A stretch of 52,348 nucleotides of DNA from a virus (taxonomy: Duplodnaviria; Caudoviricetes), in the IMG/VR virus record IMGVR_UViG_3300049007_000012, positions 1-52,348 of that record. One strand, given 5' to 3'. Below, one piece after another: positions 18,948-38,135 of the stretch; the first letter of the stretch is position 1; every line of letters starts with the position of its first letter. Position numbers and translations under genes: made by a program. Below the pieces are notes generated by a model. That model was not told the DNA's origin and made no database searches. It was given only the letters and a program-made list of their open reading frames with translations.

Positions 18948-19105
18948 CCGACCACGCCGCCACGCCGCCCGACCCGCCGCGCAACGAGTGGGCCGAGGCC
19001 CAGGCGCGGCTCGACCAGCTGTGGGCGGACCTCGCCGCCGAGGCCAGGGCCGAGGCCGAGGTCGAGCTGCGGGCGGCGATCACCGGCGAGCCGCCGCCCG
19101 GCTGA
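18944..19105 (+). CDS. Small hypothetical protein
   Basis: GTGA coupling, high GC3. Confidence 0.5.
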   Translation: MTDHAATPPDPPRNEWAEAQARLDQLWADLAAEARAEAEVELRAAITGEPPPG

Positions 19106-19107
19106 CG

Positions 19108-19127
19108 GCCTACCCGCGGCCGATCAT
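19108..19127 (+). promoter_or_regulatory. Late promoter motif copy
   Basis: GCCTACCCG-CGGCC-GATCAT-7 nt-ATG(19135). Confidence 0.7.
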
Positions 19128-19134
19128 GGCCGCC

Positions 19135-19497
19135 ATGAGCGCCGCCGAGCCCGAGCTGCCGCCGCCCGGGGACCGGGTCTGCCGCAAGGTGTTCGAGCAC
19201 GGCTGGGCGCTGTTCGACCGCGAGACCGGTGCTCGGGTCGGCCCGTGGTCGTTCCGCCGGAAGGTGGTCCTCGCCCGGCGTGGCCGTTGCGCGGTCTACG
19301 TGCCGTCGCCGTCCGGCGACTACGGCGAGTCCGGGGTATGCCCCGGCGAGGCGGTGGTGGCCTGCCCGGTCCGGGTCGACCCGGCCACCGGCGAGGACCG
19401 CATCGACGACCTGTGCCAGCACCACTACGACCGCTGGCTCGCGCACCGCCGCCGTCCCCGGCGTCCGATGCAGCTCACCCTCGCCCTGGCATCGTGA
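19135..19497 (+). CDS. Hypothetical protein preceding terL
   Basis: High GC3, LCQHH, GTGA overlap with terL. Confidence 0.65.
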   Translation: MSAAEPELPPPGDRVCRKVFEHGWALFDRETGARVGPWSFRRKVVLARRGRCAVYVPSPSGDYGESGVCPGEAVVACPVRVDPATGEDRIDDLCQHHYDRWLAHRRRPRRPMQLTLALAS

Positions 19498-20897
19498 CCG
19501 CGACGGTCACGCCGCTCGTCGGCAAGCAGCGCCGGTCCGTCGAGCTCGCCACCGCCCGCCTCAACATCTGGGAGGGCAGCGTCCGCTCGTCCAAGACCGT
19601 GTGCTCGCTGCTGCGCTGGCTGCTCTACGTCCGCCAGGGCCCGCCCGGGAACCTGGTCATGATCGGCAAGACCGAGCGCACGCTCAAGCGGAACATCATC
19701 GACCCGCTCGTCGAGATGATCGGGCAGAAGCGGTGCCGGGCGAAGTGGGGCGACGGCGAGCTGATGCTGCTCGGCCGGCGGATCTACCTGGCGGGGGCGA
19801 ACGACGCCAAGGCCGAGGACAAGATCCGGGGCCTCACGTTGGCCGGCGCCTACGTCGACGAGGTCTCGCTGCTGCCGCACGGGTTCTGGTCCATGCTCCT
19901 CACCCGCCTCTCGGTCGAGGGCGCTCAGCTGTTCGGGACCACCAACCCCGACAACCCGCAGCACTGGCTCATGCGGGACGTGCTCAAGAAGGCCCGCACG
20001 TGGCTACGCCACGACGGCCGCCTCGTCCGCTCGGACGCGCCGGGCCGCCTCGACCTCGCCCGGTTCTCGTTCCGGCTGGCCGACAACCCCACGCTCAGCG
20101 CTGCGTACCTCGCCGCGCTCGCCGCCGAGTTCCAAGGCCTCTACCGGCTCCGGTTCATCGAAGGGCTGTGGGTGCTCGCCGAGGGCGCCATCTTCGACAC
20201 CCTCGACGTCGAACCCGGCGGCGCGCACGTCGTCGCCGACGTGCCCCGCTCAGCCAACGGCGCGCCGCTGGCCCGGGAGTGGGTGCTGGCGATCGACTAC
20301 GGCACGGCGAACCCGTTCGTCGCCTTGCTGATCGGCCTGTTCGATGACGTCGACGAGAAGGGCCAGCCGTTCGAGCGCATGTACGTGGCCCGGGAATGGC
20401 GCTGGGACAGCCGGGCCGAGCACGGCCAGAAGACCGACGCCCAGTACAGCAAGGCGCTGGGCACCTGGCTCGACGGGCTCGCCCCGGAGCTGGGCCGGGT
20501 CGAGCTCGACCGCATCATCGTCGACCCCTCGGCCGCGTCGTTCATCGCTCAGCTGTGGGCCGACGGCTGGCACGGCGTGCGCGGCGCCGACAACAGCGTC
20601 ACCGACGGCATCCGGTCCACGGCCACCCTGCTGGCCGCCGACCGGCTGCGCATCCACGAGTCGTGCGCCACCGAACACCGCGCCGCCCGAGCGTCCGAGA
20701 ACGACCTGCTCGGCGAGCTGGCCGGCTACGTCTGGGACCCCACGGCGGCGGCCAAGGGCGAGGAGCGCCCGGTCAAGGACGCGGACCACGGCCCCGACGC
20801 GCTGCGCTACGGCGTGATGGGCACCAGGTTGTGGTGGCGGCACTGGCTGACGATCGACCCGACGGCGGCCGGCGACGGGATGGCCGAGGCGGCCTGA
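19494..20897 (+). CDS. terL: Terminase large subunit (PBSX-like)
   Basis: EGSVRSSKT, YVDE, TTNPD, IDYG, VDPSAASF, DHGPDALRY. Confidence 0.95.
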   Translation: MTATVTPLVGKQRRSVELATARLNIWEGSVRSSKTVCSLLRWLLYVRQGPPGNLVMIGKTERTLKRNIIDPLVEMIGQKRCRAKWGDGELMLLGRRIYLAGANDAKAEDKIRGLTLAGAYVDEVSLLPHGFWSMLLTRLSVEGAQLFGTTNPDNPQHWLMRDVLKKARTWLRHDGRLVRSDAPGRLDLARFSFRLADNPTLSAAYLAALAAEFQGLYRLRFIEGLWVLAEGAIFDTLDVEPGGAHVVADVPRSANGAPLAREWVLAIDYGTANPFVALLIGLFDDVDEKGQPFERMYVAREWRWDSRAEHGQKTDAQYSKALGTWLDGLAPELGRVELDRIIVDPSAASFIAQLWADGWHGVRGADNSVTDGIRSTATLLAADRLRIHESCATEHRAARASENDLLGELAGYVWDPTAAAKGEERPVKDADHGPDALRYGVMGTRLWWRHWLTIDPTAAGDGMAEAA

Positions 20898-20916
20898 CCT
20901 ACCCGCCGCCGATGGT
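20897..20916 (+). promoter_or_regulatory. Late promoter motif copy (upstream of phage tRNA)
   Basis: ACCTACCCG-CCGCC-GATGGT. Confidence 0.65.
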
Positions 20917-20974
20917 GGTGGACGTGGGGACGGCCCGTCCTCCGCCGGCTCCCCGGAGGCGGCCCAACCCACGT

Positions 20975-21048
20975 GTCGGGGTGGAGCAGTTGGTCAGCTC
21001 GCCGGTTTCATAGGCCGGAGGTCGCAGGTTCAAATCCTGCCCCCGCCA
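20975..21048 (+). tRNA. Phage tRNA with CAT anticodon, initiator(fMet)-like body but atypical
   Basis: D arm GAGC/GCTC, anticodon arm CCGGT-TTCATAG-GCCGG, T arm GCAGG-TTCAAAT-CCTGC; 2:71 mismatch; followed by CCT not CCA. Confidence 0.85.
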
Positions 21049-21059
21049 CCTACCCGCAT

Positions 21060-21089
21060 CGCCGCCCCTGGCTCCGGCTGGGGGCGGCG
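21060..21089 (+). terminator. Hairpin downstream of phage tRNA
   Basis: CGCCGCCCC...GGGGCGGCG stem. Confidence 0.5.
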
Positions 21090-21098
21090 CCGCGCCTG

Positions 21099-21118
21099 GC
21101 CTACCCGGGGCGGACCGT
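21099..21118 (+). promoter_or_regulatory. Late promoter motif copy (portal)
   Basis: GCCTACCCG-GGGCG-GACCGT-6 nt-GTG(21125). Confidence 0.7.
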
Positions 21119-21124
21119 GGACCG

Positions 21125-22768
21125 GTGCCGCTCCCCGACAACCCGAACGAGCCGTGGCCCCCGCCGCACTGGGCGCCGATCGCCCGGGACCAGGCCGAGG
21201 CCGCCGTCTGGTACAGCGGCGACCAGGACGCACTCGCCCGCTTCTACGGCGCCCAGACCAACGGCCAGGACCGCCGCCCCTCCGACGGCCTGCGCTCCGT
21301 CGCCGGCAAGGTCTCGGCATGGTTCTGGGGCCGCCGCTACGGCGACGAGCACACCGACCGCCAGCGCATCCACGTCCCCGCCGCCAGCGACGTCGCCGCC
21401 ACGTCGGCCGACCTCCTGTTCGGTGAGCCCCCGTCGCTCGTCATCCCCGAGGCCCACGAGGCCAACGCACCCAGCGACGCCAAGGACGCCGAGGACCGCC
21501 TCAACACGCTGGTCGAGGAGGACGGCATCGCCTCCACGCTCCTCGAGGCCGCCGAGATCTGCGCCGCCATCGGCGACGTCTACCTCCGCCCCCTCTGGGA
21601 CCGCGACGTCGCCCCCGACCACCCGCTACTGACCGTCGTCCACGGCGACCGCGCCCTCCCCGAGTTCCGATGGGGCCACCTCGTCGCCGTCACGTTCTGG
21701 CGGGAGGTGATGCGCAAGGGCGCCGAGGTCTGGCGCCACCTCGAGCGCCACGAGCCCGGCCTCATCCTCCACGGCCTCTACGTCGGCCGCGACAACGTGC
21801 TCGGCGCCAAGGTCGACCTGGCCCGCCACGACGCCACCGCCGGCTTCGACGTCGACGAGCTCGGCGCGATCAACACCCGCGACCTGCTGGGCGTCGACGG
21901 GCTGATCGTCCGGCACGTCCCCAACGTCAAACCGAACCGCCGCCACCGCGGCTACCCGATCGGACGCCACGACACCACCGGGCAAGAGGGACTGATGGAC
22001 GCCCTCGACGAGACGTTCACGTCGTGGATGCGCGACATCAGGCTCGGCAAGGCCCGCCTGGTCGTCCCGAACGAGTTCCTGGTCAGGGCCGGGCGCGGGG
22101 CCGGGGCGCGGTTCGACACCGACCAGGAGGTGTTCTCACCGCTCGACATCGACCCGTCGTCGGCGGAGAAGGCCGGCATCACCCCGGTCCAGTTCCAGAT
22201 CAGGGTCGCCGAGCACGAGCGCACCGCCATGGCGCTGTTCGAGCGGATCGTGTCCGGCGCCGGCTACAGCCCCCAATCGTTCGGCCTAGAGGGCGACGGC
22301 GCCACCCAGACCGCTACCGAGGTCGACGCCCGACAGGACCGCTCGGCCCGCACGAACGGGCGCAAGCAGCGGTACTGGCGGCGCCCGTTCGAGGACGTCG
22401 CCGAGCTGCTGCTCGTCATCGACAACAAGGTGTTCGGCTCCGGCGTGGAGCCGTACCGGCCGCGCCTGGACTTCCCCGACGCCAGCGAGGCCGGCACCCG
22501 GGACATGGCCGAGACGCTGAACCTGCTCACCATGGCCGCGTCGGCGTCGATCGAGACGCGGGTGCGGATGTTCCACCCGGAGTGGGACGAGACCCAGGTG
22601 CAGGAAGAGGTCGAGCGGATCAAGGACGAGCAGCCGGGCGGCGGCGGGTTCTCACCGGACCCGACCGGCCTCCCCCCGGCCGGCGGCGAGCCCGAGCCCG
22701 ACGCCACCAGCGGCGAGCCTGATCCGGCGGACGACCAGCCGCAGGGCGACACCGGCCCGCCGTCGTGA
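21125..22768 (+). CDS. Portal protein
   Basis: Follows terL; DALDETFTSWMRDIRLG, GYSPQSFG, QTATEV, HPEW patterns. Confidence 0.9.
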   Translation: MPLPDNPNEPWPPPHWAPIARDQAEAAVWYSGDQDALARFYGAQTNGQDRRPSDGLRSVAGKVSAWFWGRRYGDEHTDRQRIHVPAASDVAATSADLLFGEPPSLVIPEAHEANAPSDAKDAEDRLNTLVEEDGIASTLLEAAEICAAIGDVYLRPLWDRDVAPDHPLLTVVHGDRALPEFRWGHLVAVTFWREVMRKGAEVWRHLERHEPGLILHGLYVGRDNVLGAKVDLARHDATAGFDVDELGAINTRDLLGVDGLIVRHVPNVKPNRRHRGYPIGRHDTTGQEGLMDALDETFTSWMRDIRLGKARLVVPNEFLVRAGRGAGARFDTDQEVFSPLDIDPSSAEKAGITPVQFQIRVAEHERTAMALFERIVSGAGYSPQSFGLEGDGATQTATEVDARQDRSARTNGRKQRYWRRPFEDVAELLLVIDNKVFGSGVEPYRPRLDFPDASEAGTRDMAETLNLLTMAASASIETRVRMFHPEWDETQVQEEVERIKDEQPGGGGFSPDPTGLPPAGGEPEPDATSGEPDPADDQPQGDTGPPS

Positions 22769-23028
22769 GGCCCCGCACCAACCAGCACCCCGACACCGGC
22801 TACGTCACCCGCAGCAAGGTCACCCGGAACTGCCGGGGCTGCGGCAAGGTCGCCTACTCGTCCCGGAAGCTCGCCGCGGCGGCGGTCGCCCGCATCCGCC
22901 GCCAGACCGGCGACCAGGCGCTCGAGGTGTACCACGACTACGGGTGCCACGCCCTCCACATCGGACACCGGCCGGTGTTCGACCCCGAGAAGGCCCGCGG
23001 CACCGCCCGGGTCAGAGAGGCCAGCTGA
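22765..23028 (+). CDS. Small basic Zn-binding hypothetical protein
   Basis: CRGCGKVAY...C...HIGH. Confidence 0.6.
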   Translation: MRPRTNQHPDTGYVTRSKVTRNCRGCGKVAYSSRKLAAAAVARIRRQTGDQALEVYHDYGCHALHIGHRPVFDPEKARGTARVREAS

Positions 23029-23300
23029 TGCGCCCTGTACCGATCCCCGACGGCGTGGCCGAGGCCATGGGCGGCCGCCGCGTCGTCATCGGCGAGCCCG
23101 GCGACCCCACCCGCACCGACGTGCGCCCGTGCGAGTACGTCGCCACGCTGTCCGAGCTCTACCCCGGCCGGCCGTGCGTGACCGCTCTGGTCGAGCTCGA
23201 CGACGACGACCGAGCGGCCATCGCCGACGGCGCCCGGCTGTCGCTCACCCTCGACGGCGGCGAACTGCCGTGGAGCCTGGCCGTGGAGCCCCGGACGTGA
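23028..23300 (+). CDS. Hypothetical protein (paralog 1)
   Basis: Starts MRPVPIPD; TGATG coupling. Confidence 0.7.
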   Translation: MRPVPIPDGVAEAMGGRRVVIGEPGDPTRTDVRPCEYVATLSELYPGRPCVTALVELDDDDRAAIADGARLSLTLDGGELPWSLAVEPRT

Positions 23301-23584
23301 GGCCGGTCCCGATCCCCGACGACCTCGTGCCCGCAGGGTGCAAGCGGTTCATCATCTCCGCCCCCGACGGCGACCTGACGAGCGACCAGATCCGCCCCGT
23401 CGAGGCCGTGGCCGGCGTCGTCGACGGTCAGGTGCTCATGTCCATGCTCCTGGCCATGGAGCCCGGCGACCTCGACCGGCTCCGCGCCATGGAGACCGAG
23501 CTGGGCGTGGCCGGCGTGTGGCTCACGATGATGACGAACCAGATCCCGGCGTTCTCGGTCGACATCGCCGACGCCGGAGCCTGA
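23297..23584 (+). CDS. Hypothetical protein (paralog 2)
   Basis: Starts VRPVPIPD; GTGA coupling. Confidence 0.7.
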   Translation: MRPVPIPDDLVPAGCKRFIISAPDGDLTSDQIRPVEAVAGVVDGQVLMSMLLAMEPGDLDRLRAMETELGVAGVWLTMMTNQIPAFSVDIADAGA

Positions 23585-23587
23585 CCC

Positions 23588-24673
23588 GTGCCGGCCACGC
23601 CGGACCCCGACCTCGCCCTCCGCCTGGCCAAGACGACCGCCGACATCTACGGCGACGCCGCCGCCCAGATGCTCGACCTCGTCGCGCGCCGCCTCGCCAC
23701 CGGCATCGACCGGCCCGGCTGGGCCGAGGCCAAGCTCGTCGAGCAGATCCGCCTACGCGGCGACCTGCAGGCGATCGTCGACCGGCTCGCCGTGCTCGGC
23801 CCCGACGCCATCGGCGAAGCCCTGGCCGACGCATGGTCCGCCGGCCTCGACGACGCGCTCGAGGACCTGACCGAAGGCGAGGCCCGCGGCGGGTTCGGGC
23901 GGACCAACACGAGGGCGGTCGACGCCCTCGTCACAGAGACCGTCACCGCCGTGCAGTCCACGCACGGCCAGATCATCCGCTCCACCATGGACGCCTACCG
24001 CGCCGTGATCGCCGAGACCAGCGCGCCCGGCGTCGTCACCGGCACCGCCACCCGCCGCCAGGCCGCACAGCGCGCCCTCGACCGCTTCGCAGTCGAGGGG
24101 ATCACCGGGTTCCGCGACCGCGCGGGGCGCCGGTGGGAGCTGGAGTCCTACACCGAGATGGCCGTCCGCACCTCGGCCGGGCGGGCGCAGGTGGCCGGGA
24201 CGCTCGACCGGTTCGTCATCGCGGGCCGCGACCTCGTCATCGTCTCCGACCACGGCCAAGAGTGCCGGGTGTGCCGCCCCTGGGAGCGCAGGGTCCTCTC
24301 CATCTCCGGGCGCACACCGAAGGGCACCGTGCTGTCCGACGGCGTCCGCGTGGCCGGCACGGTCGCCGAGGCCCGAGGCGACGGGCTGCTCCACGCCAAC
24401 TGCCGCCACCGACTCACGGCCTACACCCCCGGCCTGACCCGCCCCGGCCGCCCCCAGTCCGACCCCGAAGGCGACCAGGCCCGCCAGCGGCAGCGGGCGC
24501 TCGAGCGGCAGGTGCGGGCGTGGCGCCGCCGCGAGGCCACCGCGCTCGACGACCCGGCACGGGCACGAGCGCGGACGGGCCTGCGGGACGCACGGGCGCG
24601 GCTACGGGCACACATCGCCGAGCACGACCTCCAGCGTCAGCCCGCCCGGGAGCAGGTCGGCCGGGCCCGTTGA
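23588..24673 (+). CDS. Phage minor capsid protein (min_cap2/MuF-related)
   Basis: DRAGRRWELESYTEMAVRT, CRVCRPW, GLLHANCRH. Confidence 0.88.
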   Translation: MPATPDPDLALRLAKTTADIYGDAAAQMLDLVARRLATGIDRPGWAEAKLVEQIRLRGDLQAIVDRLAVLGPDAIGEALADAWSAGLDDALEDLTEGEARGGFGRTNTRAVDALVTETVTAVQSTHGQIIRSTMDAYRAVIAETSAPGVVTGTATRRQAAQRALDRFAVEGITGFRDRAGRRWELESYTEMAVRTSAGRAQVAGTLDRFVIAGRDLVIVSDHGQECRVCRPWERRVLSISGRTPKGTVLSDGVRVAGTVAEARGDGLLHANCRHRLTAYTPGLTRPGRPQSDPEGDQARQRQRALERQVRAWRRREATALDDPARARARTGLRDARARLRAHIAEHDLQRQPAREQVGRAR

Positions 24674-24692
24674 CCTACCCGGTCGGGACGAT
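24673..24692 (+). promoter_or_regulatory. Late promoter motif copy (scaffold/capsid)
   Basis: ACCTACCCG-GTCGG-GACGAT-7 nt-ATG(24700). Confidence 0.7.
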
Positions 24693-24699
24693 GACCCCG

Positions 24700-25437
24700 A
24701 TGCGAATCGACACCGCCCCCGGGGGCAACGATGACGATCTGACGTTCGACACGGTGCTGGTCGACGGCCGGCGCCTGGTCCACCTGTGGTCCGACGGCAC
24801 CGTGCTGCCCGTGGTCCGCGGCGGCGAGGGCCCCAACGATCCTCCCGCGGATCCGCCCGCTGACCCCCCGGCCGACCCGCCCGCCGATCCCCCCGCGGAT
24901 CCGCCCGCCGACCAGGCCAAGGGCGGCAAGGGCGACCAGCCCGTCAACATGACCCAGGCCGAGCTCGACGACATGATCGAGAAGCGCCTCGCCAAGGCCA
25001 AGGGCAGCTGGGAGTCCGACTCCAAGAAGGCGGCCGACCGGGCCAAGCTCGACGAGACCGAGCGGTTGAAGGTCGAGAAGGCCGACGCCGAGAAGGCCGC
25101 CACCGCAGCGACCGAGGCCGCCGCCTCGCGCATCGTCCGCTCCGACGCCCGCATCGCCGCCGTCGAGGCCAAGGTCAAGGCCGACCGCGCCGTCGCGTTC
25201 GTGAAGCTGCTCGACCTCTCCGACGTGACGGTCAACGACGCCGGCGACGCCGACGCCAAGGCACTCAAGAAGGCCATCGACGCCGGCCTCAAGGACTACC
25301 CCGAGTTCAAGGCCGCCGACGCCGGCAACGGCAACGGCAGGGGCGGCTCGAGCGGCGGGGACATGAACGGCGGCGCCGGCCAGGGCCGCGCCACCAAGAT
25401 CGAAGACGCCGTGGCGGCCCGCCTCAAGGCCGGCTGA
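24700..25437 (+). CDS. Capsid scaffolding protein
   Basis: TQAELDDMIEKRLAK, coiled coil, upstream of MCP. Confidence 0.85.
   Translation: MRIDTAPGGNDDDLTFDTVLVDGRRLVHLWSDGTVLPVVRGGEGPNDPPADPPADPPADPPADPPADPPADQAKGGKGDQPVNMTQAELDDMIEKRLAKAKGSWESDSKKAADRAKLDETERLKVEKADAEKAATAATEAAASRIVRSDARIAAVEAKVKADRAVAFVKLLDLSDVTVNDAGDADAKALKKAIDAGLKDYPEFKAADAGNGNGRGGSSGGDMNGGAGQGRATKIEDAVAARLKAG
24838..24912 (+). repeat. In-frame 12-nt repeat encoding (DPPA)x6
   Basis: DPPADPPADPPADPPADPPADPPAD with synonymous variation. Confidence 0.9.
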
Positions 25438-25447
25438 CCACAGCACC

Positions 25448-25568
25448 CCTCCGACGGGAGGCGAAACACGGGCCCCACGGGGCAGGGGACAGCGCCGGCA
25501 CCCACCGGCCTCCGACGGGAGAGAAACGGGGCCCTCCGGGCCAGGGGAGAACGCTCGCACCCACGAGC
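25448..25568 (+). ncRNA. Tandem ~61-nt structured RNA-like leader of the capsid gene
   Basis: Two units each with three hairpins; conserved loops and linkers, varying stems. Confidence 0.55.
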
Positions 25569-25594
25569 AGGACACCAGACGCACGGAGGCAACC

Positions 25595-26902
25595 ATGCCC
25601 GTCACCCTTGCCCAGGCCGCCCTCAACACGCAGGACGACCTCGACGCCCTCATCATCGACGAGTTCCGCAAGAGCTCGGCGATCCTCGACGCCCTCCCGT
25701 TCCACGACACCGTCAACCCCATGGGCGGCGGGACGACCCTGACGTACGGCTACCACCGGCTGGTCACCCAGCGGTCGGCCGCCTTCCGTCCGATCAACAG
25801 CGAGTACACGGCGGAGGAGGTGACCAAGGAGCGGTTCACGGTCGACCTCAAGCCCCTCGGCGGCTCGTTCCGCATCGATCGTGTGCTCAACGACATCGCC
25901 CGCTCGAGCGAGACGGCACTGCAGCTCCAGCAGCTCATCAAGGCCACCCGCACCCGGTTCCAGGACGAGGTCATCAACGGTGACGTGGCCGTCGACGCCA
26001 ACGGTTTCGACGGTCTCGACAAGGCCCTGACCGGCTCGACGACCGAGGTCAACGCCGCCGGCACCGACGCCCGCGCGGACTGGGTCGACCTGGACGCCGC
26101 GACCTACACGTCGCAGCGGGCCTACGACCTGCTCGACGAGCTGTTCGGTGTGCTCGACGGGCCCCCGTCGCTGCTCATCTCCAACGACCTGGTGGCGGCC
26201 AAGCTGCGGGCGATCGCCCGCCGGGCCAACGTCTACGTCGAGCGCCCGGTCGAGGGCCTGCGCGACAGCTTCGGCAACCCGATCAACCGGCAGATGGTCG
26301 GCAACGCCGTGCTGGTCGACGCCGGCGAGAAGGCCGGCAGCTCGCAGCGGATCGTCCCCGTCTACGACCCCGACAACTCGTCGTACACGATCACGCACTC
26401 GACCGGCACCGACGGCGGCACCTTCCGGGTGCGGGTCGACGTCAACGGCGACGTGGACGAGACCGACGAGCTGGCGTGGAACATCTCCACGGCCGACCTC
26501 GACACCGCGCTCGAGGGCCTGTCCAACGTCCCCGCCGGTGCCGTCACGGTGACGGGCTCGGCCGGCGTCAACTACACCGTCACGTTCGCCGGTGGCCTGG
26601 CCGGCCTCGACGTCGTGCTGTCCGTGGTCGACGACGAGCTGCTGGACACTCCGGTGCTCGAGCCCACCGTCGTGGCCGAGGCCGCCACGACCGGCGGCTA
26701 CTCCGACCTGTACACGGTGCGGATCGACATGGCCGACGGGTTCCACGGCGTCTCGACCACGGGCTCGCTGGTGCGCACCTGGCTGCCCGACTTCACCACG
26801 TCCGGCGCGGTCAAGGACGGCGAGTGCGAGATGGGCCCCGTGGCCGTCGCGCTCAAGTCGACCAAGGCCGCCGCCGTGCTCCGCCGGATCAAGGTCCGCT
26901 GA
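25595..26902 (+). CDS. Major capsid protein with inserted domain
   Basis: SD GGAGG; AFRPINSEY, LGGSFRIDR, FDGL, KAAAVLR; position after scaffold. Confidence 0.9.
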   Translation: MPVTLAQAALNTQDDLDALIIDEFRKSSAILDALPFHDTVNPMGGGTTLTYGYHRLVTQRSAAFRPINSEYTAEEVTKERFTVDLKPLGGSFRIDRVLNDIARSSETALQLQQLIKATRTRFQDEVINGDVAVDANGFDGLDKALTGSTTEVNAAGTDARADWVDLDAATYTSQRAYDLLDELFGVLDGPPSLLISNDLVAAKLRAIARRANVYVERPVEGLRDSFGNPINRQMVGNAVLVDAGEKAGSSQRIVPVYDPDNSSYTITHSTGTDGGTFRVRVDVNGDVDETDELAWNISTADLDTALEGLSNVPAGAVTVTGSAGVNYTVTFAGGLAGLDVVLSVVDDELLDTPVLEPTVVAEAATTGGYSDLYTVRIDMADGFHGVSTTGSLVRTWLPDFTTSGAVKDGECEMGPVAVALKSTKAAAVLRRIKVR

Positions 26903-26904
26903 GC

Positions 26905-27764: not shown

Positions 27765-27767
27765 CCC

Positions 27768-29605: not shown

Positions 29606-29618
29606 GGAGGCACCCATC

Positions 29619-30371: not shown

Positions 30372-30372
30372 C

Positions 30373-30738
30373 GTGGCCGACGTGCTCGACCTCGACGCTG
30401 TCCTGGCCGCCCGCAACGGCGGCCAGGGCACACCGTCGACCCCGGTCACGGCCAAGCTGTTCGGCCAGGACTGGGAGCTGTACGCCTCCCTGCCGGTCGC
30501 CACCTACCGGCGCACCATGGCGTGGGAGCGCGAGGGCGTCACCGACCTCGCCATCCGCCACCTCGCCGAGCTCGTGTTCGACATGGTCCCGGCGCCGGTG
30601 CTCGACGAGTGGACCGCCCGCGGCCTCACCATCGATGACCTGTGGGAGATCGTGCCGCCGATCCTGCAGGCGTACCAGGAGCGAGGCACCGAGGGCACGC
30701 AGGACGTCTGGTCCGCCATACAGCCACCGGCCGGCTGA
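30373..30738 (+). CDS. Tail assembly chaperone (G-like)
   Basis: Between tail tube and tape measure. Confidence 0.75.
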   Translation: MADVLDLDAVLAARNGGQGTPSTPVTAKLFGQDWELYASLPVATYRRTMAWEREGVTDLAIRHLAELVFDMVPAPVLDEWTARGLTIDDLWEIVPPILQAYQERGTEGTQDVWSAIQPPAG

Positions 30739-30740
30739 CC

Positions 30741-31364
30741 GTGGCCACCTTCGCCGACTTCGACGCCGCATGGACCGAGCGCGCCTCGGCCCAGAACGGC
30801 GGCGCCACGGTGGAGGTGACCGTCGCCGGCCAGCACTGGGCGATCCCCACCGTCACCGCCGCCGTGATGCTCCGGGCGCTCCGGTCGCTCGTCGCCAGCG
30901 ACGACGGCGTCACCGGCCAGGAGATGTACCGCATCGCCCTGACCCTCATCCCCGAGCGCACGATCGAGCAGTGGCTCACCGCCGGCCTCGACCCCGGCGA
31001 GCTACGCCAGGCCGTCGCCGACGTGCTCGTCGCCCAGATCACCACCGCGAACCACGACGAGCCTGGCGGACGCGGGCAGGGGTCGGCGACCGAGCCGTCG
31101 TTCGTGCGCACCGTGCTCGTCCGCTGGCGGCTGCTCGAGGCCGACTTCACCCGCGAGTACCGGCTCGACATCAACGAGGCCATCCACGACATGACGTGGC
31201 GCCGGTTCGCCGCCCTCGTCGCCGGCCTGTCGGCGGCGTCGCGGTGGGCCGGGCACCTCCGATCGAAGGCGCCCAAGAGGCCCGTGCGCCGGCTCACCGA
31301 GCCGAAGGCGATCGGGTCGTTCATGCGGTCGCTCCGCACCCCCGTGAGACGTAAGGGGGGCTGA
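30741..31364 (+). CDS. Tail assembly chaperone (G-like domain fused to T-like domain)
   Basis: N-half similar to upstream ORF; C-half WRLLEADFTREYRLD..MTWRRF. Confidence 0.75.
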   Translation: MATFADFDAAWTERASAQNGGATVEVTVAGQHWAIPTVTAAVMLRALRSLVASDDGVTGQEMYRIALTLIPERTIEQWLTAGLDPGELRQAVADVLVAQITTANHDEPGGRGQGSATEPSFVRTVLVRWRLLEADFTREYRLDINEAIHDMTWRRFAALVAGLSAASRWAGHLRSKAPKRPVRRLTEPKAIGSFMRSLRTPVRRKGG

Positions 31365-31365
31365 C

Positions 31366-33906
31366 GTGGGCCTCGACATCGGCACCGTCGCCGGGTTCCT
31401 CGACCTCGACACCGGCCCGTTCGACAAGGCCCTGGCCGGGGCCGAGGGCAAGTTCGGTGGCATCTCCGCCGGCGCCGTCGCCGCGGGCGCGATGGCTGGG
31501 GCGCTGCTCGCCAAGGGGATCTCGGACACCCTCAACATCGAGCAGGCCAACGACAAGCTCGCCGCCCAACTCGGCCTCACCGCCCAGGAGTCCGAGCGGT
31601 ACGGCAACATCGCCGGCTCCCTCTACGCCGACGCCTACGGGTCGTCGATCGAGGAGGTCAACACGGCGCTCGGCGCGGTGTCGTCGTCGCTCGGCGACAG
31701 CCTCGGCGGCAGCGACGCCGCGCTGCAAGAGGCCACCGGCCACGCGATGGATCTCGCCCAGGCGTTCGGTATCGACGTCGCCGACGCCGCCGCCATGGCC
31801 GGCTTCGCGATCCGCACGGGCCTGGCGGACAACAGCGAGCAAGCGTTCGATTTGATCACCGCGTCGATGCAGCAGATGCCCGCTGCGATGCGCGGCGAGC
31901 TGATACCGATGATCGAGGAGTACGGCGTCCACCTCGCCGCCGTCGGCATCACCGGAGAGGACGCGTTCGGGCTGCTCGTGGCGGCCAGCCAAGAGGGCTC
32001 CTACGCCATCGACAAGACCGCCGACTCGCTCAAAGAGTTCGCCATCCGCGCGACCGACGGCAGCGTCACGACCCGCGAGGCCTACCGGGCGATCGGCGTC
32101 GACGCCGACGAGATGGCCGCCCGGATCGTCGAGGGCGGCGACTCCGCCCGCGGCGCGCTCAACCAGATCATCGAGGGCCTGCTGGCGATGGAGGACCCCG
32201 TCGCCCGCCAGCAGGAAGCGATCAAGCTGTTCGGCGCCCCGCTCGAGGACCTGTCGGTCACCCAGGTGCCCCAGTTCCTCCAGTCGATCCTCGACGCCGG
32301 CGAGGGCATGCAGGACACCGAGGGCGCCGCCGACTCCCTGGGCGCCACCCTGGCCGACAACCTCGGCACCAAGCTGACCGCGGTCAAACGCAAGGCCGAG
32401 ATGTTCCTCGTCGACTTCCTGTCGTCGCCGTTCGGGCCCTGGGTGCTCGGCGCCGCCGCGCTGGTCGGCGGGCTGGTGGCCCTCGGCGGGATCGCGACCA
32501 CCGCGGCCGACAAGCTGCGGGGCATCAAGGACTCGTGGTCCGACATGGGGTCCTTCGGCAAGATCAGCGTCGCGACCACGGCCGTGGCCGGGTTCGTCGG
32601 CGCGCTCATCGCCTGGGACGCGGCCAAGGGCGAGGAGCAGGCCAAGGAGACCGCCGAGTCGTTCGTCGCCATGGGCACGGACATCGAGGCCAGCTTCATC
32701 CAGTTCATGAGCACGTGGGGCGGGCAGGCCGCCGGCGGGCAGATCTTCGACCAGCTGATCGAGTCGAACATCGAGGCCGCCACCCGGTTCGTCGACACCG
32801 CCGAGCAGGCCGGCTGGGCGAGCGACGAAATCGCTTCGATGCGCGACCGGATCGAGCAGAAGAGCACCGCGGACGCGCAGGGCCGCAACGACGCCGACGC
32901 CTACAACGCAGCGGTCGACGACCAGGCCGCCGCCATGGAAGGCGCCGCCGGGGCAACCGAGCTGTCCACGGAGGCGATCAAGGAGCAGGCCGACGCGATG
33001 CGGGCGGCGTCGGACCCGCTGTTCGCGCTGAACGACGCCATCCGCTCCCACGAGGAGGCACAGACCGGCGTAGCCGAGGCCGAGCAGGCTGCCGCCGACG
33101 CCCGCAGCGCGCACGGCGCCGGGTCGCTCGAGGCCATGGCCGCCGAGCGCGACCTCGCCGACGCCCGCATCGCCGCCGGCGAGTCGGCGTTCGGGCTCCG
33201 GGACGCCGAGATGCAGCTCGCCGCCGCGATCGCTGAGAACCCGTCGCTGCTGGGCGACGTGAACGACATGCTCGCCGAGTTCGTGGCGACGGGCGCGATC
33301 ACGATGGAGGAGGCGGGCGTGCTGGCCGAGCGGTTCGGGCTGCTCGGCGAGCGCGTCGAGGGCGTCCCCGACGAGCAGAGCACGGACGTGTCGGCCCCTG
33401 GCGCCGACGGCGTCATCACGCACATGGACTGGCTGCGCGGGAAGGTGCTCGCCGTCCCCGACAGCAGCCGCACCAACACGTCGGCCCCGGGGGCGCGCAC
33501 CGCCAGTGACCAGCTGGACGGCGTGGCCAGGGCGGTCGGTCGGATCGACAAGGACGTGCAGATCAACGTCCGCACCAAGCAGTGGGGGCCGATCGTCGGG
33601 AAGATGCACGACGGCGGCCTCGTCGAGGGCCCGCTCGGTGCCGAGGTCCCGAAGATCCTGCAGGCGGGCGAGCGCGTGCTCGCGATCGACGACCCGCTCA
33701 ACAAGGCCATCGCCGCGGCCGAGGCGGGCGTCGACCCTCGTGTCGACGCAGCGTCGATCACCGGGTTCGGTGGCGCCAGCCGTGGGGGAGCGGGCGGTGG
33801 GCGCATCAGGATCGACGTGGCCGGCGGGGACGACATGTTCATGCGCTGGCTCCGCGACCGGATCACCGTGGAGGGCGGCGACGTGCAGCAGGTGCTCGGC
33901 CGATGA
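31366..33906 (+). CDS. Tape measure protein
   Basis: 846 aa Ala-rich helical; DKTADSLKEFAIR, LFGAPLEDL. Confidence 0.93.
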   Translation: MGLDIGTVAGFLDLDTGPFDKALAGAEGKFGGISAGAVAAGAMAGALLAKGISDTLNIEQANDKLAAQLGLTAQESERYGNIAGSLYADAYGSSIEEVNTALGAVSSSLGDSLGGSDAALQEATGHAMDLAQAFGIDVADAAAMAGFAIRTGLADNSEQAFDLITASMQQMPAAMRGELIPMIEEYGVHLAAVGITGEDAFGLLVAASQEGSYAIDKTADSLKEFAIRATDGSVTTREAYRAIGVDADEMAARIVEGGDSARGALNQIIEGLLAMEDPVARQQEAIKLFGAPLEDLSVTQVPQFLQSILDAGEGMQDTEGAADSLGATLADNLGTKLTAVKRKAEMFLVDFLSSPFGPWVLGAAALVGGLVALGGIATTAADKLRGIKDSWSDMGSFGKISVATTAVAGFVGALIAWDAAKGEEQAKETAESFVAMGTDIEASFIQFMSTWGGQAAGGQIFDQLIESNIEAATRFVDTAEQAGWASDEIASMRDRIEQKSTADAQGRNDADAYNAAVDDQAAAMEGAAGATELSTEAIKEQADAMRAASDPLFALNDAIRSHEEAQTGVAEAEQAAADARSAHGAGSLEAMAAERDLADARIAAGESAFGLRDAEMQLAAAIAENPSLLGDVNDMLAEFVATGAITMEEAGVLAERFGLLGERVEGVPDEQSTDVSAPGADGVITHMDWLRGKVLAVPDSSRTNTSAPGARTASDQLDGVARAVGRIDKDVQINVRTKQWGPIVGKMHDGGLVEGPLGAEVPKILQAGERVLAIDDPLNKAIAAAEAGVDPRVDAASITGFGGASRGGAGGGRIRIDVAGGDDMFMRWLRDRITVEGGDVQQVLGR

Positions 33907-36746
33907 CGACGCTCGCCTGGCCGCATCGGGCCCGGGTCCTCGCGGCCCTGGGTGCCGATCTGACCGCCCGGCCGATGACGTGGGAGTGGACCGACATCGG
34001 CGGCGAGATCCCCGACGACACCGGCGACCACCGGCTCGTCTACCAGGGCATCCCGATCAAGCGGGGCCGCGCCGACATGGCATCCCGCTCGGCGCCGGCG
34101 ATCGCCACTGTGGTGCTCGACAACCGCGACGGGGCCGTCACCCCCCGCAACCCGCGGTCCCTCTGGTACCCGCACCTCGGCCGCGGCACCCCCGTGCGCA
34201 TCGACGCCCAGGGTCCGCCCGGGCTGCTGCTCGACGGCACCACCGCCGGCAACGCTTCGACCCCCGACGCCGCCGCGCTGGAGATCACCGGCGACTTCGA
34301 TCTGCGGTGGGAGGGCGAGATCGCCGAGTGGGTCCGCGGCGACGACTGGTGGGGCGAGTGGCCCGCACTGGTCGGGAGGTGGAAGCCCGCCGGCAACAAC
34401 CGGGCCTACATGATGTGGGTCTCCGGCGACATCCTCGCCGTGTCGTGGTCGACCGACGGCACCGACGCCAACGCGCGGTCGTACGCCGCCGGCATCCTCC
34501 CGGTGACGACCGGCCGGTTCGCCGTCCGCGGGGTGCTCGACGTCAACGACGGCGGCGCCCACACCGTCCGCGGCTACTGGGCCCCCAGCCTGGCCGGGCC
34601 GTGGGAGCAGATCGGCGAGCAGACCGAGGCCGGCACCACCTCGGTCTACGGGGGCGGCACCGCGCCGCTCGAGGTCGGCGTCATCACCGGCGAGATCACC
34701 GTGCCGTTCTACGGCCGCTGCTACGCCGCCGAGGTCCGCAACGCGGTCGGGTCCGTCGTCGCCAACCCGGACTTCGAGGACCAGCAGCCGGGGGCGACGT
34801 CGTTCACGGACGCGGCCGGGCGCACGTGGACGCTCAACGGCACGGCCGAGCTCGACGACTGGCACACCCGCCACACAGGCCAGATCGCCGACGTCCGCCC
34901 GGTCTGGCCGGAGGGCGACATCACCGACGGCACCGACCCCGACGCCCCCGGCCTCGCCCGGGTCACGATGACCGTGGCCGGCCTGATCCGCCGGCTCGAC
35001 GCCGGGGCCCCGACGCTCAAGTCGACCCTCACCCGCGTGGTCACCTCCCCCGTCAACGAGGGCGCCGTGATGGCGGCGTGGCCCATGGAGGACGGCCGCG
35101 ACGCCGTGCAGGCCGCGTCTGCGGTCCCGGGCGCCGGGCCGATGCAGGTCGGTGGCGCCTGGTCGTTCGGCTCGGACAGCACCCTCCCCGCTGCCGACTC
35201 GCTCCCCAGCGTCTCGGCGAACCAGTCCGCCGGCTGGTCCGCCCCCGTGCCCCCGCCCGTCCAGGCCGCCGACAACTGGCGGGTCGAGATCTTCGTCAAG
35301 ATCGACGACCCCCACGTCGACCCCGCCTCACAATCGATCTTCGTGGTCCGCACCGACGGCACCGTGCGCACGTGGAACATCGCGTGCAACGACCAGTTCA
35401 TCGCCCTCGCCGGGTTCGCCGACGACGGCGCCTTCCTCATCCTGGAGGACGCGGCCTCAACCGAGTTCTTCGGGAACGGCTGGGTGCGGGTGTGGCTGGC
35501 CGCCGAGCAGTCGGGCGGGAACATCTCCTACACGGTCGGGTGGGGCGTCGTCGGCGGCAACACCTTCGGGTGGACCGACACCGTGGCCGGCACGGTCGGG
35601 AAGGTGACCAGGGTCGACAACCTGTTCACGGCCCCGCCGAGCGGCGTGTCGTTCGGGCACCTGATCGTGTCGCACGACCGGCCCGACTCGTGGCTCGCCT
35701 CCCCCGGGGCGTTCACCGGCGGCGCCGACACCGCCTACGTCGGAGAGACCGCCAAGGCGCGGTTCCGTCGGCTGGCCACCGAGGAGGGCATCACTCACGG
35801 CGTCATCTCGACCCTGGACGACCCCGGCACCCCGATGGGCCCCCAGCGCCCCGCCAAGCTCCTGACGCTGTTCCAGGAGTGTGCCGACGCCGAGCAGGGC
35901 CACCTCACCGAGATGCGCGACGAGCTCGGCCTGATCCTCCGCACGCGGGCGTCGCTGTACAACCAGGAGCCCCGGGAGGTGGCGGCCGACGCCGGGCTCG
36001 TGAACCCGTTCGAGCCGGCGTACGACGACAGCAACCTGCGCAACCACGTCACCGCCAGCCGGCCCAACGGCTCGTCGGCCAGCGTGCGCCGGCGCCCCAA
36101 CATCATCGTCGAGGGCGAGTATCAGGAGAGCGTCACCGTCCCGGTGGCGACCGACGCCCAGCTGCCCGATCAGGCTGGCTGGCGGGTGCATCAGGGCACC
36201 TGGCCCGAGATGCGCTACCCCTCGCTGGCGGTCGATCTGTCGACCGGCTCGCAGGAGGACGTCGACCTGTTCGACCGGTGGCTGGCTGCCCGCGAGGGCG
36301 ACCGCTGGGACGTGACCGGCCTGCCCGGCCAGCACCCCCCGGGCCCGGTGCGGTCGATGATCGAGGGCAGCGTCGAGACCATCTCGCCGGAGCGGTGGAC
36401 CGTCGGGCTGAACTGCTCGCCGGCCGGGCCGTGGGAGGTCGCCGTCCGCGAGGACACCGTGAGCGGCCGCCGCGACATCGGCGTGTGCGAGCTCACCGGC
36501 GACGTCGACGAGGACGACACGGTGCTCGAGGTCGAGACCCTGCTCGGCCCCCGGTGGACGACCAACGCCGCGGACCTGCCGTTCGACATCGACCTGGCCG
36601 GCGAGCAGATCACCGTGACCGGCGTGGCCGACGTGTCCGGCCAGGTGCAAGAGCTGACCGTCACCCGCTCGGTCAACGACATCGTCAAGGCCCACCCGGC
36701 CGAGACGGACCTCGCCCTCTGGCATCCCCCCATCCGCGCGCTCTGA
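33903..36746 (+). CDS. Large minor tail/baseplate protein with lectin-like (LamG) regions
   Basis: Follows TMP; LDNRDG..TPRNP.S..YP; Trp/beta-rich. Confidence 0.8.
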   Translation: MTTLAWPHRARVLAALGADLTARPMTWEWTDIGGEIPDDTGDHRLVYQGIPIKRGRADMASRSAPAIATVVLDNRDGAVTPRNPRSLWYPHLGRGTPVRIDAQGPPGLLLDGTTAGNASTPDAAALEITGDFDLRWEGEIAEWVRGDDWWGEWPALVGRWKPAGNNRAYMMWVSGDILAVSWSTDGTDANARSYAAGILPVTTGRFAVRGVLDVNDGGAHTVRGYWAPSLAGPWEQIGEQTEAGTTSVYGGGTAPLEVGVITGEITVPFYGRCYAAEVRNAVGSVVANPDFEDQQPGATSFTDAAGRTWTLNGTAELDDWHTRHTGQIADVRPVWPEGDITDGTDPDAPGLARVTMTVAGLIRRLDAGAPTLKSTLTRVVTSPVNEGAVMAAWPMEDGRDAVQAASAVPGAGPMQVGGAWSFGSDSTLPAADSLPSVSANQSAGWSAPVPPPVQAADNWRVEIFVKIDDPHVDPASQSIFVVRTDGTVRTWNIACNDQFIALAGFADDGAFLILEDAASTEFFGNGWVRVWLAAEQSGGNISYTVGWGVVGGNTFGWTDTVAGTVGKVTRVDNLFTAPPSGVSFGHLIVSHDRPDSWLASPGAFTGGADTAYVGETAKARFRRLATEEGITHGVISTLDDPGTPMGPQRPAKLLTLFQECADAEQGHLTEMRDELGLILRTRASLYNQEPREVAADAGLVNPFEPAYDDSNLRNHVTASRPNGSSASVRRRPNIIVEGEYQESVTVPVATDAQLPDQAGWRVHQGTWPEMRYPSLAVDLSTGSQEDVDLFDRWLAAREGDRWDVTGLPGQHPPGPVRSMIEGSVETISPERWTVGLNCSPAGPWEVAVREDTVSGRRDIGVCELTGDVDEDDTVLEVETLLGPRWTTNAADLPFDIDLAGEQITVTGVADVSGQVQELTVTRSVNDIVKAHPAETDLALWHPPIRAL

Positions 36747-36762
36747 GGAGGCACACCCCGCC

Positions 36763-37218
36763 ATGTCCGACCTGACCGCCGGCTCGTTGATCCGAGCGCT
36801 CGACACCCCACCCACCGTCACCAGCGAGGTACCCGACACCTTCAACTTCACCAACACCGCCTACGCCACAACAGGGCAGGCCGGCGGCAACTGCGGCGTC
36901 GCGTTCATGGCCCCCACCACGGGCCGGGTCCTGCTCAAATACGGGGCCCAGATCATCAATGGCGCCACCCCGTCGTCGATCGTCGCGCCGGTGATCCGTG
37001 AGGGCGGCACGGTCGGTTCGGGGACGTCGGTGCTCGCCGCCGCGGACGACAACGCGGTGAGCGCGGTGGGCGCGACCGGGGGGAGCCGGTTCCGGGAGAA
37101 GCTCGTCACCGGCCTGACGCCCGGGGCGACGTACAACGTGCGGCTCGAGCACCGGGTGTCGTCGGCGAGCACGGGCTCGGTGCTGCGCCGCGTCGTGATC
37201 GTCGCCCCCTCGACCTGA
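36763..37218 (+). CDS. Minor tail protein
   Basis: SD GAGGAGG; VTGLTPGATYNV. Confidence 0.7.
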   Translation: MSDLTAGSLIRALDTPPTVTSEVPDTFNFTNTAYATTGQAGGNCGVAFMAPTTGRVLLKYGAQIINGATPSSIVAPVIREGGTVGSGTSVLAAADDNAVSAVGATGGSRFREKLVTGLTPGATYNVRLEHRVSSASTGSVLRRVVIVAPST

Positions 37219-37237
37219 CCTACCCGGCCCGCACGAT
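37218..37237 (+). promoter_or_regulatory. Late promoter motif copy (lysis cassette)
   Basis: ACCTACCCG-GCCCG-CACGAT-7 nt-ATG(37245). Confidence 0.7.
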
Positions 37238-37244
37238 CGGGGCC

Positions 37245-38135
37245 ATGGTGCTCACCGGGCCGGACGTCTCCCACTGGCAGAGCCGTGTCGACTGGGCCGC
37301 GGTGGCCGCGGCGGGCCACGACTTCGCGTGGTGCAAGGCCACCCAGGGCGTGGCCCGGGTCGACCCCCAGTTCGAGCGCAACGTCGAAGGCATACGGGCC
37401 GTCGGCCTGGCGCGCGGGGTGTACCACTTCCTCGACGCCGAGCACGACGCCCGAGCGCAGGCCCGCCACCTCGTCGACACCGCCCGGATGGCCGACTGCA
37501 TGTACGCGCTCGACGTCGAGACCGAGGGCACCAGCAACCCGACGATCGCCCAGGCGGAGGCGTTCGCCGCCGAGTTCCGCGAGCTGATGCCCGGCCGGCC
37601 CCTCGTCATCTACACGTCCTGGGGCTGGTGGTCCGGCCGCGACCCGTCAGGCCGAGGGGCCCGCATCTCGCCGCACCTGTGGCACGCCCGCTACCGGCCG
37701 GTCGGCCAGGGGCCCGGGGCGATGTACGGCGGCTGGGACGCCCCCACGTTCTGGCAGCACACCAGCTCCGGCAACTGCCCGGGCATCGACGGCGGCTGCG
37801 ACCTCAACCAGTTCTACGGGACCGTCTCCGACCTCCGGCACCTCGCCGGCGGCCGGGCGCCCGCCCCCAGCCCGCACCCGTCCGAGGAGGACGACGACAT
37901 GCCCGCACCCCGCAAGGTCACCATCGCCAGCACGACCCCGCAGCGGTTCGCCTACGTGCTGCCCGACGGCCTCGTCGTCGACACCGACCACCAGGGCAAG
38001 CACCTCGTCAAGGGCGCCGCGAGCGTCGACGCGTTCGATGCCGTCTACGGCGGCGGCTCGCCCAACGCCGTGCAGGTCGACATCGTGCAGCAGGCGATCG
38101 GGCGCGAGCGCGCCCGCATGCTCCACGCCGGCTGA
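37245..38135 (+). CDS. Endolysin, GH25 muramidase
   Basis: DVSHWQ, KATQG, YHF, LDVE, WQHTS, DLN. Confidence 0.93.
   Translation: MVLTGPDVSHWQSRVDWAAVAAAGHDFAWCKATQGVARVDPQFERNVEGIRAVGLARGVYHFLDAEHDARAQARHLVDTARMADCMYALDVETEGTSNPTIAQAEAFAAEFRELMPGRPLVIYTSWGWWSGRDPSGRGARISPHLWHARYRPVGQGPGAMYGGWDAPTFWQHTSSGNCPGIDGGCDLNQFYGTVSDLRHLAGGRAPAPSPHPSEEDDDMPAPRKVTIASTTPQRFAYVLPDGLVVDTDHQGKHLVKGAASVDAFDAVYGGGSPNAVQVDIVQQAIGRERARMLHAG

Follow-up and report, generated by a model that had tools for sequence, protein, structure and literature searches.

Activators of the Ltr superfamily (RinA, ArpU, LtrA/Sigma70_r4, LtrB/DUF1492 and LtrC), together with Alt of TP901-1, are described as the late activators of phages of Gram-positive bacteria; the Ltr protein is small, is encoded just upstream of terS within the replication transcription unit and is needed for the packaging, morphogenesis and lysis genes, and the LtrA family resembles region 4 of sigma factors (PMC3753634, PMC3152322). 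A place just before terS is accounted classic for a late activator (PMC3753634). In the middle promoters of phage T4, which depend on MotA and on the appropriation of sigma together with AsiA, an asymmetric phage box replaces the -35 element, is combined with a -10 element of the host type, and is found at many promoters (PMC2988021). Late-gene control in the phages of actinobacteria is poorly understood. Here we describe a putative late promoter element, and a candidate activator of it, in a provirus from a soil metagenome assembly (IMG/VR record IMGVR_UViG_3300049007_000012), the complete 52,348-base record of which is referred to as the window. The closest described counterparts appear to be the Ltr/RinA-type activators as regards function and gene position, and the T4 MotA middle promoters as regards promoter logic. 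With moderate confidence, we regard the sites as phage-private, factor-dependent late promoters that would start leaderless mRNAs, with a small helix-turn-helix (HTH) protein encoded at 17269-17703 as the likely activator.

The element has the composite form (T-G-N)CCTACCCG, 5 nt, (C/G)A-N3-T, 6-8 nt, ATG/GTG. Its core, CCTACCCG (hereafter, the box), occurs exactly six times, at 19109, 20898, 21049, 21100, 24674 and 37219, each time on the + strand, and all copies lie within 19.1-37.2 kb. Five of them are followed by 5 nt, a hexamer with A in the second and T in the sixth position (A2/T6), 6-7 nt and an ATG or GTG; TGA or TGG stands immediately 5′ of the box in four of these five full sites. 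The first-pass annotation had listed the same six positions, the same strings at five of them and a sixth copy (21049) lacking the hexamer, and all of this was confirmed.

The number of copies is by itself weak evidence (six, where 1.64 are expected on the two strands together; six is reached in 3 of 100 shuffles), and copies with one mismatch are not enriched (78 versus 70 expected). It is their arrangement that is remarkable. In the geometry 8-mer-N5-NANNNT-N6/7-RTG, the box recurs five times, and no other 8-mer does so even twice. This geometry is satisfied at 58 of 52,308 positions of the + strand, and the chance of finding five of the six copies in it is about 1e-14, a value that gives an order of magnitude only, since the pattern was defined after the data had been seen. 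Five of the six copies are located in the 7.1% of the window that is non-coding according to our model of open reading frames (ORFs), and the box is the sole non-repetitive 8-mer so placed. No copy is present in the flanks beyond the attachment sites attL and attR, although this DNA (approx. 9.7 kb) is too short for its absence to be meaningful.

A metagenome scan with the portal protein identified two relatives, L038 and L039, which are nearly identical to each other and whose identity to the window is 61% for terL, about 53% for portal, 56% for MuF and 38% for terS. Each of them contains the exact box three times, before terS, portal and scaffold, and every copy (3/3 in each) is part of such a site, i.e. 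box, 5 nt, CACCAT, CATCAT or CATACT, 6-8 nt, and GTG or ATG; none is on the minus strand. The gaps cannot otherwise be aligned between the window and these relatives, and what is kept is confined to the box, the spacing, the start codon and the hexamer's A and T, which in effect is a phylogenetic footprint. Related prophages were where the first-pass annotation had suggested looking for the motif, and it is indeed kept there before the same three genes. Judged by its sequence, the regulatory element is real and conserved.

A second lineage (L001, L002, L037 and L045), close to L038, has CCTAGCT in place of the box at the three sites. L002 and L038 are 88% identical over 5.2 kb and 93% identical over 0.8 kb by blastn (86% in a global alignment). 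From the hexamer onwards into the gene, their identity is 100% at each of the three sites; a patch of 20-25 nt that contains the box differs at all three, CCTAGCT being located at the same distance from the hexamer. Every CCTAGCT in L001, L002, L037 and L045 (2/2, 3/3, 2/2 and 1/1, respectively) lies at one of the three sites, and in neither lineage (L038/L039; L001/L002/L037/L045) is there a copy of the other type of box, or any copy on the minus strand. Because drift cannot write the same 7-8-mer three times per lineage, the change of the box is to all appearances a coordinated change of specificity.

More distant comparisons were also made. No recurring 8-mer was found in the geometry in the distant portal relatives L003-L013. 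A scan of viral contigs with TGACCTACCCG-N5-SACGAT gave 23 stretches, all with single matches and with no further site-like copy, about 18 of which share one coding context in unrelated phages. A second scan, with CCTACCCG-NN-CCG-CA-N3-T, gave at least 119 single-match stretches, and among the matches listed none codes for a relative of the late genes or of the HTH protein of the window. Megablast against cultured phages gave nothing useful, and distant blastn matches were to phages of Streptomyces, Gordonia and Micromonospora (64-69% identity over at most 34% of the query). One of these, SV1, was compared in detail; it has ordinary Shine-Dalgarno (SD) sequences and no homologue of the HTH protein, and its orthologous portal, MuF, scaffold and lysin genes are all preceded by SDs of the GGAGG type.

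The window and the relatives together provide 12 distinct sites. In all 12, the A2/T6 hexamer follows the box with a gap of exactly 5 bp and an RTG follows 6-8 nt on; all 12 hexamers begin with C or G and lack the first T of TANNNT, and all 12 start codons are ATG or GTG, never TTG. In mycobacteria, leaderless translation is reported to require a 5′ ATG or GTG, which is also enough for it, and not to work with TTG (PMC4633059). The box ends 17-21 nt ahead of the start codon and contains no GGAGG. The first-pass annotation had described the box-linked genes as lacking an SD, and this holds: the 6-8 nt before their start codons leave no room for one, and other late genes have a GGAGG (25595, 29619, 36763). 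If transcription starts on the start codon, the A and T of the hexamer take the positions of the -11 and -7 bases in an actinobacterial -10 element. The start codons themselves have further backing: the portal alignments start at residue 1 in all relatives, in agreement with GTG 21125, and the scaffold start ATG-CGA/AGG-ATC (M-R-I) is common to the window and L038. At the scaffold site of L045, the identity extends as far as the ATG, and the sequence beyond is unrelated.

A motif that is always on the sense strand, 17-21 nt ahead of start codons without an SD, could alternatively act in RNA, by marking a landing or processing point in a long late mRNA and thereby enabling SD-less translation, either by cleavage before the start or by pairing with a host RNA; formally, it resembles the start-associated sequences (SAS) described in Cluster K (PMC3203893). 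We consider this very improbable, as an RNA role does not predict the A and T kept in the -11/-7 register at every one of the 12 distinct sites, and the coordinated box change between phages that are 86% identical does not suit pairing with a host RNA. Moreover, the site at 20898 precedes a tRNA gene and not a cistron, no Rfam family besides the tRNA was found in the region, and the box, which has no SD, lies further upstream than the SAS motif as described (PMC3203893).

As for other kinds of promoter, no site of the sigma-70 type (-35 and -10 hexamers 16-18 bp apart) was found in 17000-26000. Three further candidates were ruled out: (i) a true -35 in a TTGACC-like string that overlaps the box but is separated from the hexamer by only 11 bp, (ii) a -10 element of the WhiG/FliA type (GCCGATAA-like), which the hexamers of the relatives do not fit, and (iii) a promoter of a single-subunit phage RNA polymerase, there being no non-structural ORF of polymerase size in the window.

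The candidate partner of the box is the protein encoded at 17269-17703, whose N-terminal part (approx. 85 aa) is a HTH domain of an unnamed family and whose C-terminal part is a zinc ribbon. In Pfam it matches HTH_23 (26.3 bits; cutoff 24.6) and, below the cutoff of 24.1, Sigma70_r4 (19.7 bits). Its sole PHROG match, a weak one to HNH, is confined to residues 91-133 of the C-terminal zinc part, and its sole NCBIfam match is an IS630 transposase (13.8 bits against a cutoff of 100). The start of the gene overlaps the stop of the replisome-organiser gene (16550-17272), and terS follows after 200 nt, with one ORF of 66 aa between. Homologues are located directly upstream of terS in L038/L039 and L001/L002/L037, so that in three lineages terS is preceded by the HTH gene as the last of the early genes; the genes ahead of the HTH gene encode a replisome organiser, a D5-type primase or an AAA_25 helicase. 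The zinc ribbon (CxxGH...CxxC; 17540-17703) is absent from the homologues of L038 and L001 and present in P0013, P0018 and P0032.

About 45 relatives were found among 5.8 billion proteins, none of them informatively named (two carry generic labels only). The HTH proteins compared here are 84-144 aa long and have an isoelectric point (pI) of 6.27-7.86; they are not basic. The alignment and the fold were based on 25 of these relatives and three references, with the window's own entry, near-duplicates, two proteins with aberrant C-termini and the weakest matches left out, and the model reached a predicted local distance difference test (pLDDT) score of 87.8. The best match in a sequence search of the PDB had an E value of 0.059, a Foldseek search of the PDB gave nothing at E <= 0.001 (the best being weak XRE/Cro-like matches), and the protein atlas scores were all <0.9. 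In viral contigs, homologues were found only in L001, L002 and, distantly, in L047; none was detected by tblastn in 50,697 phage records or in the 404 genomes searched (those of L010, L011 and L013 and 401 sampled from the class of the L010 genome). The homologue of L047 has a Cys-rich tail of its own, and a DNA methylase gene also follows it, after the replisome-organiser homologue.

The case for this protein comes from the comparison of the two box lineages. Apart from an indel in MuF, the most diverged stretch in the alignment of L038 and L002 is L038 2921-3175 (25-67% identity per 60 nt), which is the body of the HTH gene, ends at the terS box and is homologous to the N-terminal 85 residues of the window protein. 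Of 79 residues, 34 are common to the two HTH proteins (17 of 28 at the N-terminus, but just 8 of the 29 that make up the HTH segment). The proteins of the window and L038, whose boxes are the same, agree in the first HTH helix (LAD.ADRL) and in the residues H, A, R and R of the recognition helix, the corresponding positions in the CCTAGCT lineage being occupied by E, I, R and S; this argument from the recognition helix is a soft one. Among the other family members, a recognition helix of the H-R-x-A-R-R type is present in, e.g., P0003, P0005, P0006, P0008, P0011, P0012, P0014 and P0016, and one of the T-E-R-T-I-R type in P0001 and P0010. The first-pass annotation had put the HTH protein forward as its first candidate, and the homologue has turned out to be the most diverged gene between the two lineages. 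We conclude that it is likely to be the activator of the box promoters.

Several points weigh against this assignment. The evidence of co-variation comes from three lineages with two types of box, and the overall identity over residues 1-80 hardly separates the pair with the same box (window and L038, 39/80) from that with different boxes (window and L001, 35/79). In the relatives, 0.8-6 kb upstream of the HTH gene was sampled and these regions are non-homologous, so that the true partner could be encoded elsewhere. An early-region ORF of L037 (2411-3577) has a C-terminal WhiB domain (56.5 bits), and the distant homologue of L047 (7990-8830; 32% identity) precedes a replisome organiser and not terS. 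Furthermore, a box that ends 5 nt from the -10 hexamer would be in an unusual position for an activator, the protein (pI 6.3-7.9) is not basic, unlike the RinA-type activators, and no significant relative in fold or sequence shows how it would meet RNA polymerase.

The low separation by identity, the sampling of the upstream regions, the WhiB-domain ORF and the replication context in L047 would also suit late promoters that are real and whose box is read by some other factor, be it an alternative sigma or transcription factor of the host or a phage protein encoded outside the compared contigs. We regard this as unlikely. L038 and L002 are 86% identical and both have a G+C content of about 70%, so they probably share hosts, and a host factor would not explain the coordinated change of their boxes. 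In the 6 kb in which they align, the HTH gene is the only diverged patch of the size of a gene, the MuF indel aside. In the 40 window ORFs scanned with Pfam, no WhiB was found at E <= 0.01 and no sigma-factor model reached its curated cutoff, the sub-cutoff Sigma70_r4 match of 17269-17703 being the only one; this agrees with the earlier remark that neither a sigma factor nor WhiB is evident. The remaining ORFs (about 35 of 75) are mostly structural genes, small ORFs at 41.9-42.6 kb and ORFs beyond attR.

The box could also be an operator. Actinobacterial promoters often function with a -10 element alone, and a repressor bound at -29 to -19 might shut late promoters of this kind, otherwise constitutive, in the lysogen or in early infection. 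The motif, which is asymmetric and always points the same way relative to transcription, is found in short gaps, where it often touches stop codons, and it co-varies with the HTH gene; asymmetry, placement in gaps, orientation and co-variation are marks of the stoperators as well (PMC6550527). Nevertheless, we judge a repressor to be an unlikely reader of the box, and marginally more so than the other factors considered above. The immunity switch (4918-5019; 4850-5060 inspected) has no box and, beside the Cro-like gene, has several repeats of its own, GCAACAC(C), in direct and inverted arrangement, which are likely to be the repressor operators. The HTH gene is part of the lytic operon of the + strand, its start overlapping the preceding stop, and should thus be silent in a lysogen. 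There are only six copies of the box, all in the late region, as opposed to the many genome-wide sites described for stoperators (PMC6550527). Finally, the 12 of 12 hexamers without the first T weakly suggest feeble promoters.

Under the activator reading, in which promoter activity, the start point, binding by the HTH protein and activation rather than repression are all inferred from sequence, the hexamer would be a weak -10 element that retains the A and the last T but in no case the first T. Instead of a -35 element there would be the asymmetric box, at about -29 to -19, to which the small HTH protein, the product of the last gene of the early/replication operon, would bind. Host RNA polymerase would start on the A or G of the start codon, producing a leaderless mRNA for which no SD is needed. 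Among sequencing runs, a DNA run of the soil metagenome that is the probable source was the only match to 18800-26000, and no RNA run matched. In this way, the HTH protein may turn on the packaging genes, the tRNA, portal, scaffold/head and endolysin genes late in the lytic cycle. The silence of the late genes in the lysogen would be most easily explained by dependence on an activator, because the immunity repeats differ from the box and there is no sigma-70-type promoter in 17-26 kb. The model of the first-pass annotation, i.e. weak -10-only promoters activated by a box-bound phage protein and forming a late leaderless regulon, is thus supported as the simplest one.

A more general proposal seems to us possible, though it falls somewhat short of probable. 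According to it, the small HTH family would be a -35-replacing late activator of uncultured soil actinobacterial phages, acting from an asymmetric 11-bp box placed 5 bp from a crippled -10 and directing transcription from the start codon, which would amount to a MotA-like solution that differs in fold and in geometry and for which no co-factor is known. The orthogonal protein/box pairs would then number at least two (CCTACCCG and CCTAGCT), in phages whose DNA is otherwise 86% identical.

The features of the window are listed in Table 1; the gene layout is based on our own model of 75 ORFs and on family scans (Pfam, PHROG).

Table 1. Sites and genes of the prophage in the window
Feature	Position	Strand	Description	Match
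Immunity switch	4918-5019		Between a leftward 132-aa ORF and the rightward Cro-like gene	
Cro-like gene	5020-5244	+ (rightward)		Family scans
Early operon		+	Gam, AAA_24, two DNA methylases, replisome organiser (16550-17272)	
HTH-zinc ORF	17269-17703	+		
Degenerate terS site	17880-17907	+	CCCAGCCG (two mismatches), N5, CACGAT, 6 nt, ATG 17905	
terS-like gene	17905-18381	+		
Site 1	19109-19137	+	Box 19109-19116, GATCAT 19122-19127, 7 nt, ATG 19135; ahead of a 120-aa ORF running into terL	
terL	19494-20897	+		
Site 2	20895-20926	+	TGA, box 20898-20905, GATGGT 20911-20916, 7 nt, GTG 20924; predicted +1 near 20924, 51 nt upstream of tRNA-Met	
tRNA-Met (CAT)	20975-21048	+		ARAGORN; Rfam RF00005, 59.6 bits
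Orphan box	21049-21056	+	Adjoins the tRNA 3′ end; no hexamer	
G+C hairpin, 13 bp	21060-21089	+	Between tRNA and portal site; terminator-like, without U tract	
Site 3	21097-21127	+	TGG, box 21100-21107, GACCGT 21113-21118, 6 nt, GTG 21125 (portal)	
Portal	21125-22768	+		phrog_533, 2.5e-94
MuF	23588-24673	+		
Site 4	24671-24702	+	TGA, box 24674-24681, GACGAT 24687-24692, 7 nt, ATG 24700 (scaffold)	
Scaffold	Starts 24700	+		
Major capsid	25595-26902	+	Tail genes downstream	
Site 5	37216-37247	+	TGA, box 37219-37226, CACGAT 37232-37237, 7 nt, ATG 37245 (endolysin)	
Endolysin	37245-38135	+		phrog_291, 4.3e-36

Two of the sites proposed in the first-pass annotation were upheld in part. The string given for the two-mismatch copy before terS is as noted, but its position weight matrix (PWM) score (11.9 bits) is not above that of background matches. 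The copy is the positional homologue of the exact-box terS site of L038 (L038:3146), which shows it, on the credit of position alone, to be the putative decayed homologue of the exact-box site of the relatives. The match to the site matrix that ranks next, CCCACCCG-N5-CAAGGT (38907-38930; 17.3 bits), is located in the lysis region, inside a weakly coding ORF (38389-39048), and has no start codon at the usual distance. At 20898, the geometry stood but the 29-codon ORF assigned to GTG 20924 did not: it overlaps the tRNA-Met gene and is probably not a gene. Because of this overlap, site 2 most likely drives the tRNA.

The tRNA-Met gene, placed between terL and portal, is flanked by three box copies and a hairpin (minimum free energy of region 21051-21102, -34.9 kcal/mol; z -2.43); there is no tRNA at this place in L038 or L002. 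The sites at 20898 and 21100 are alike downstream of the box, which suggests an ancestral terL-portal gap that received the tRNA, the promoter-like site being duplicated. The orphan box at 21049 is probably a scar of this insertion. Between terS and terL (18378-19497) there are three ORFs (189, 53 and 120 aa) without family matches, and none at this place in L038. The frame of terL is open from 18948, far 5′ of its likely start, and overlaps the 120-aa ORF behind site 1.

The prophage, which spans approx. 42.6 kb, is bounded by an exact direct repeat of 44 nt (1581-1624 and 44138-44181; attL and attR) and is integrated in a tRNA-Glu gene, the 3′ part of which forms attL, beside a tyrosine integrase gene (1724-3052). 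The two adjacent DNA methyltransferase genes of the early operon (10350-12919) encode a C5-cytosine enzyme followed by an N6/N4 enzyme. Downstream of the lysis genes, an ORF of 575 aa without a Pfam match (39838-41565) contains diverged tandem repeats (40513-41533) with a period of 60/120 nt, in 5-7 copies that are 60-79% alike. A serine recombinase gene (44141-46000, minus strand) terminates within attR; to the right of it lies a gene for a HerA/AAA_10-type ATPase (49588-52149), and the region resembles a second mobile element or a host island. The host flank codes for proteins of the UDG and ADC families. The host is probably an uncultured member of the Acidimicrobiales, because the sole named relatives of the ADC-family protein among the 120 listed are three proteins (70-76% identical) of Acidimicrobiales metagenome-assembled genomes.

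If the proposed mechanism is true, it provides a simple rule by which the late promoters and true start codons of a clade of soil phages can be located, and an example of lethal late genes that are kept silent in the lysogen without operators of the immunity repressor. It would also yield a natural pair of compact, orthogonal activator/promoter modules (approx. 35 bp) giving leaderless mRNAs, i.e. parts for hosts of high G+C content. The box switch between nearly identical phages is a clean case of the co-evolution of a regulator and its sites at several loci together.

Compared with the Ltr systems, the HTH gene of the window has the same position (in the relatives, after primase/helicase genes) and its product has a sub-threshold match to Sigma70_r4. 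However, the protein belongs to no Ltr family according to Pfam, NCBIfam or PHROG, and the HTH proteins compared, 84-144 aa long and not basic, differ from the RinA-type proteins, which are basic and of approx. 130 aa. In addition, the host is an actinobacterium rather than a Firmicute, the target sites number five or six and are scattered, where the Ltr systems have a single promoter ahead of terS, the box directly adjoins the -10, and leaderless transcripts are predicted. The likeness to MotA lies in the promoter logic outlined at the outset. The MotA box is described as centred at -30, 12 ± 1 bp from an excellent -10, and MotA as having a double-wing DNA-binding fold (PMC2988021), whereas the box found here is 5 bp from a weak hexamer and the candidate activator is a HTH protein. 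No MotA or AsiA name was present among the ORFs scanned with Pfam or PHROGs, in which no targeted search was made.

Ogr of P2, Delta of P4 and Mor and C of Mu are likewise single small phage activators serving several dispersed late promoters, and Ogr is stated to bind zinc (PMC3152322), as the C-terminal zinc ribbon of the window protein would. Nevertheless, Ogr is reported to bind inverted repeats near -55 and to contact the alpha subunit (PMC3152322), whereas the box described here, at about -29 to -19, is asymmetric; the L038 and L001 homologues are without the zinc ribbon, and no relationship to these activators was detected at the sequence level. The stoperators of Cluster A are similar in being asymmetric and of one orientation and in that motif and regulator co-vary between related phages, but they are bound by the immunity repressor and include the operator of the early lytic promoter (PMC6550527); here, the immunity region has other repeats and no box, and the HTH gene is in the lytic operon. 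The SAS of Cluster K are also repeated asymmetric motifs, mostly in one orientation, found just upstream of gene starts and given as of unknown function; their motif (GGGATAGGAGCCC) contains a ribosome-binding sequence (PMC3203893), whereas the box is without an SD and is tied to a -10-like hexamer.

In open-access full texts and bioRxiv (main texts), no such activator/promoter pair was found for actinobacterial phages. The protein family and the position of the box are new. Set beside these systems, the element and its candidate activator most likely add a new variation to the theme of phage late activators and their promoters, combining an unnamed HTH family, an unusual position of the box, predicted leaderless late mRNAs and a natural switch of specificity.

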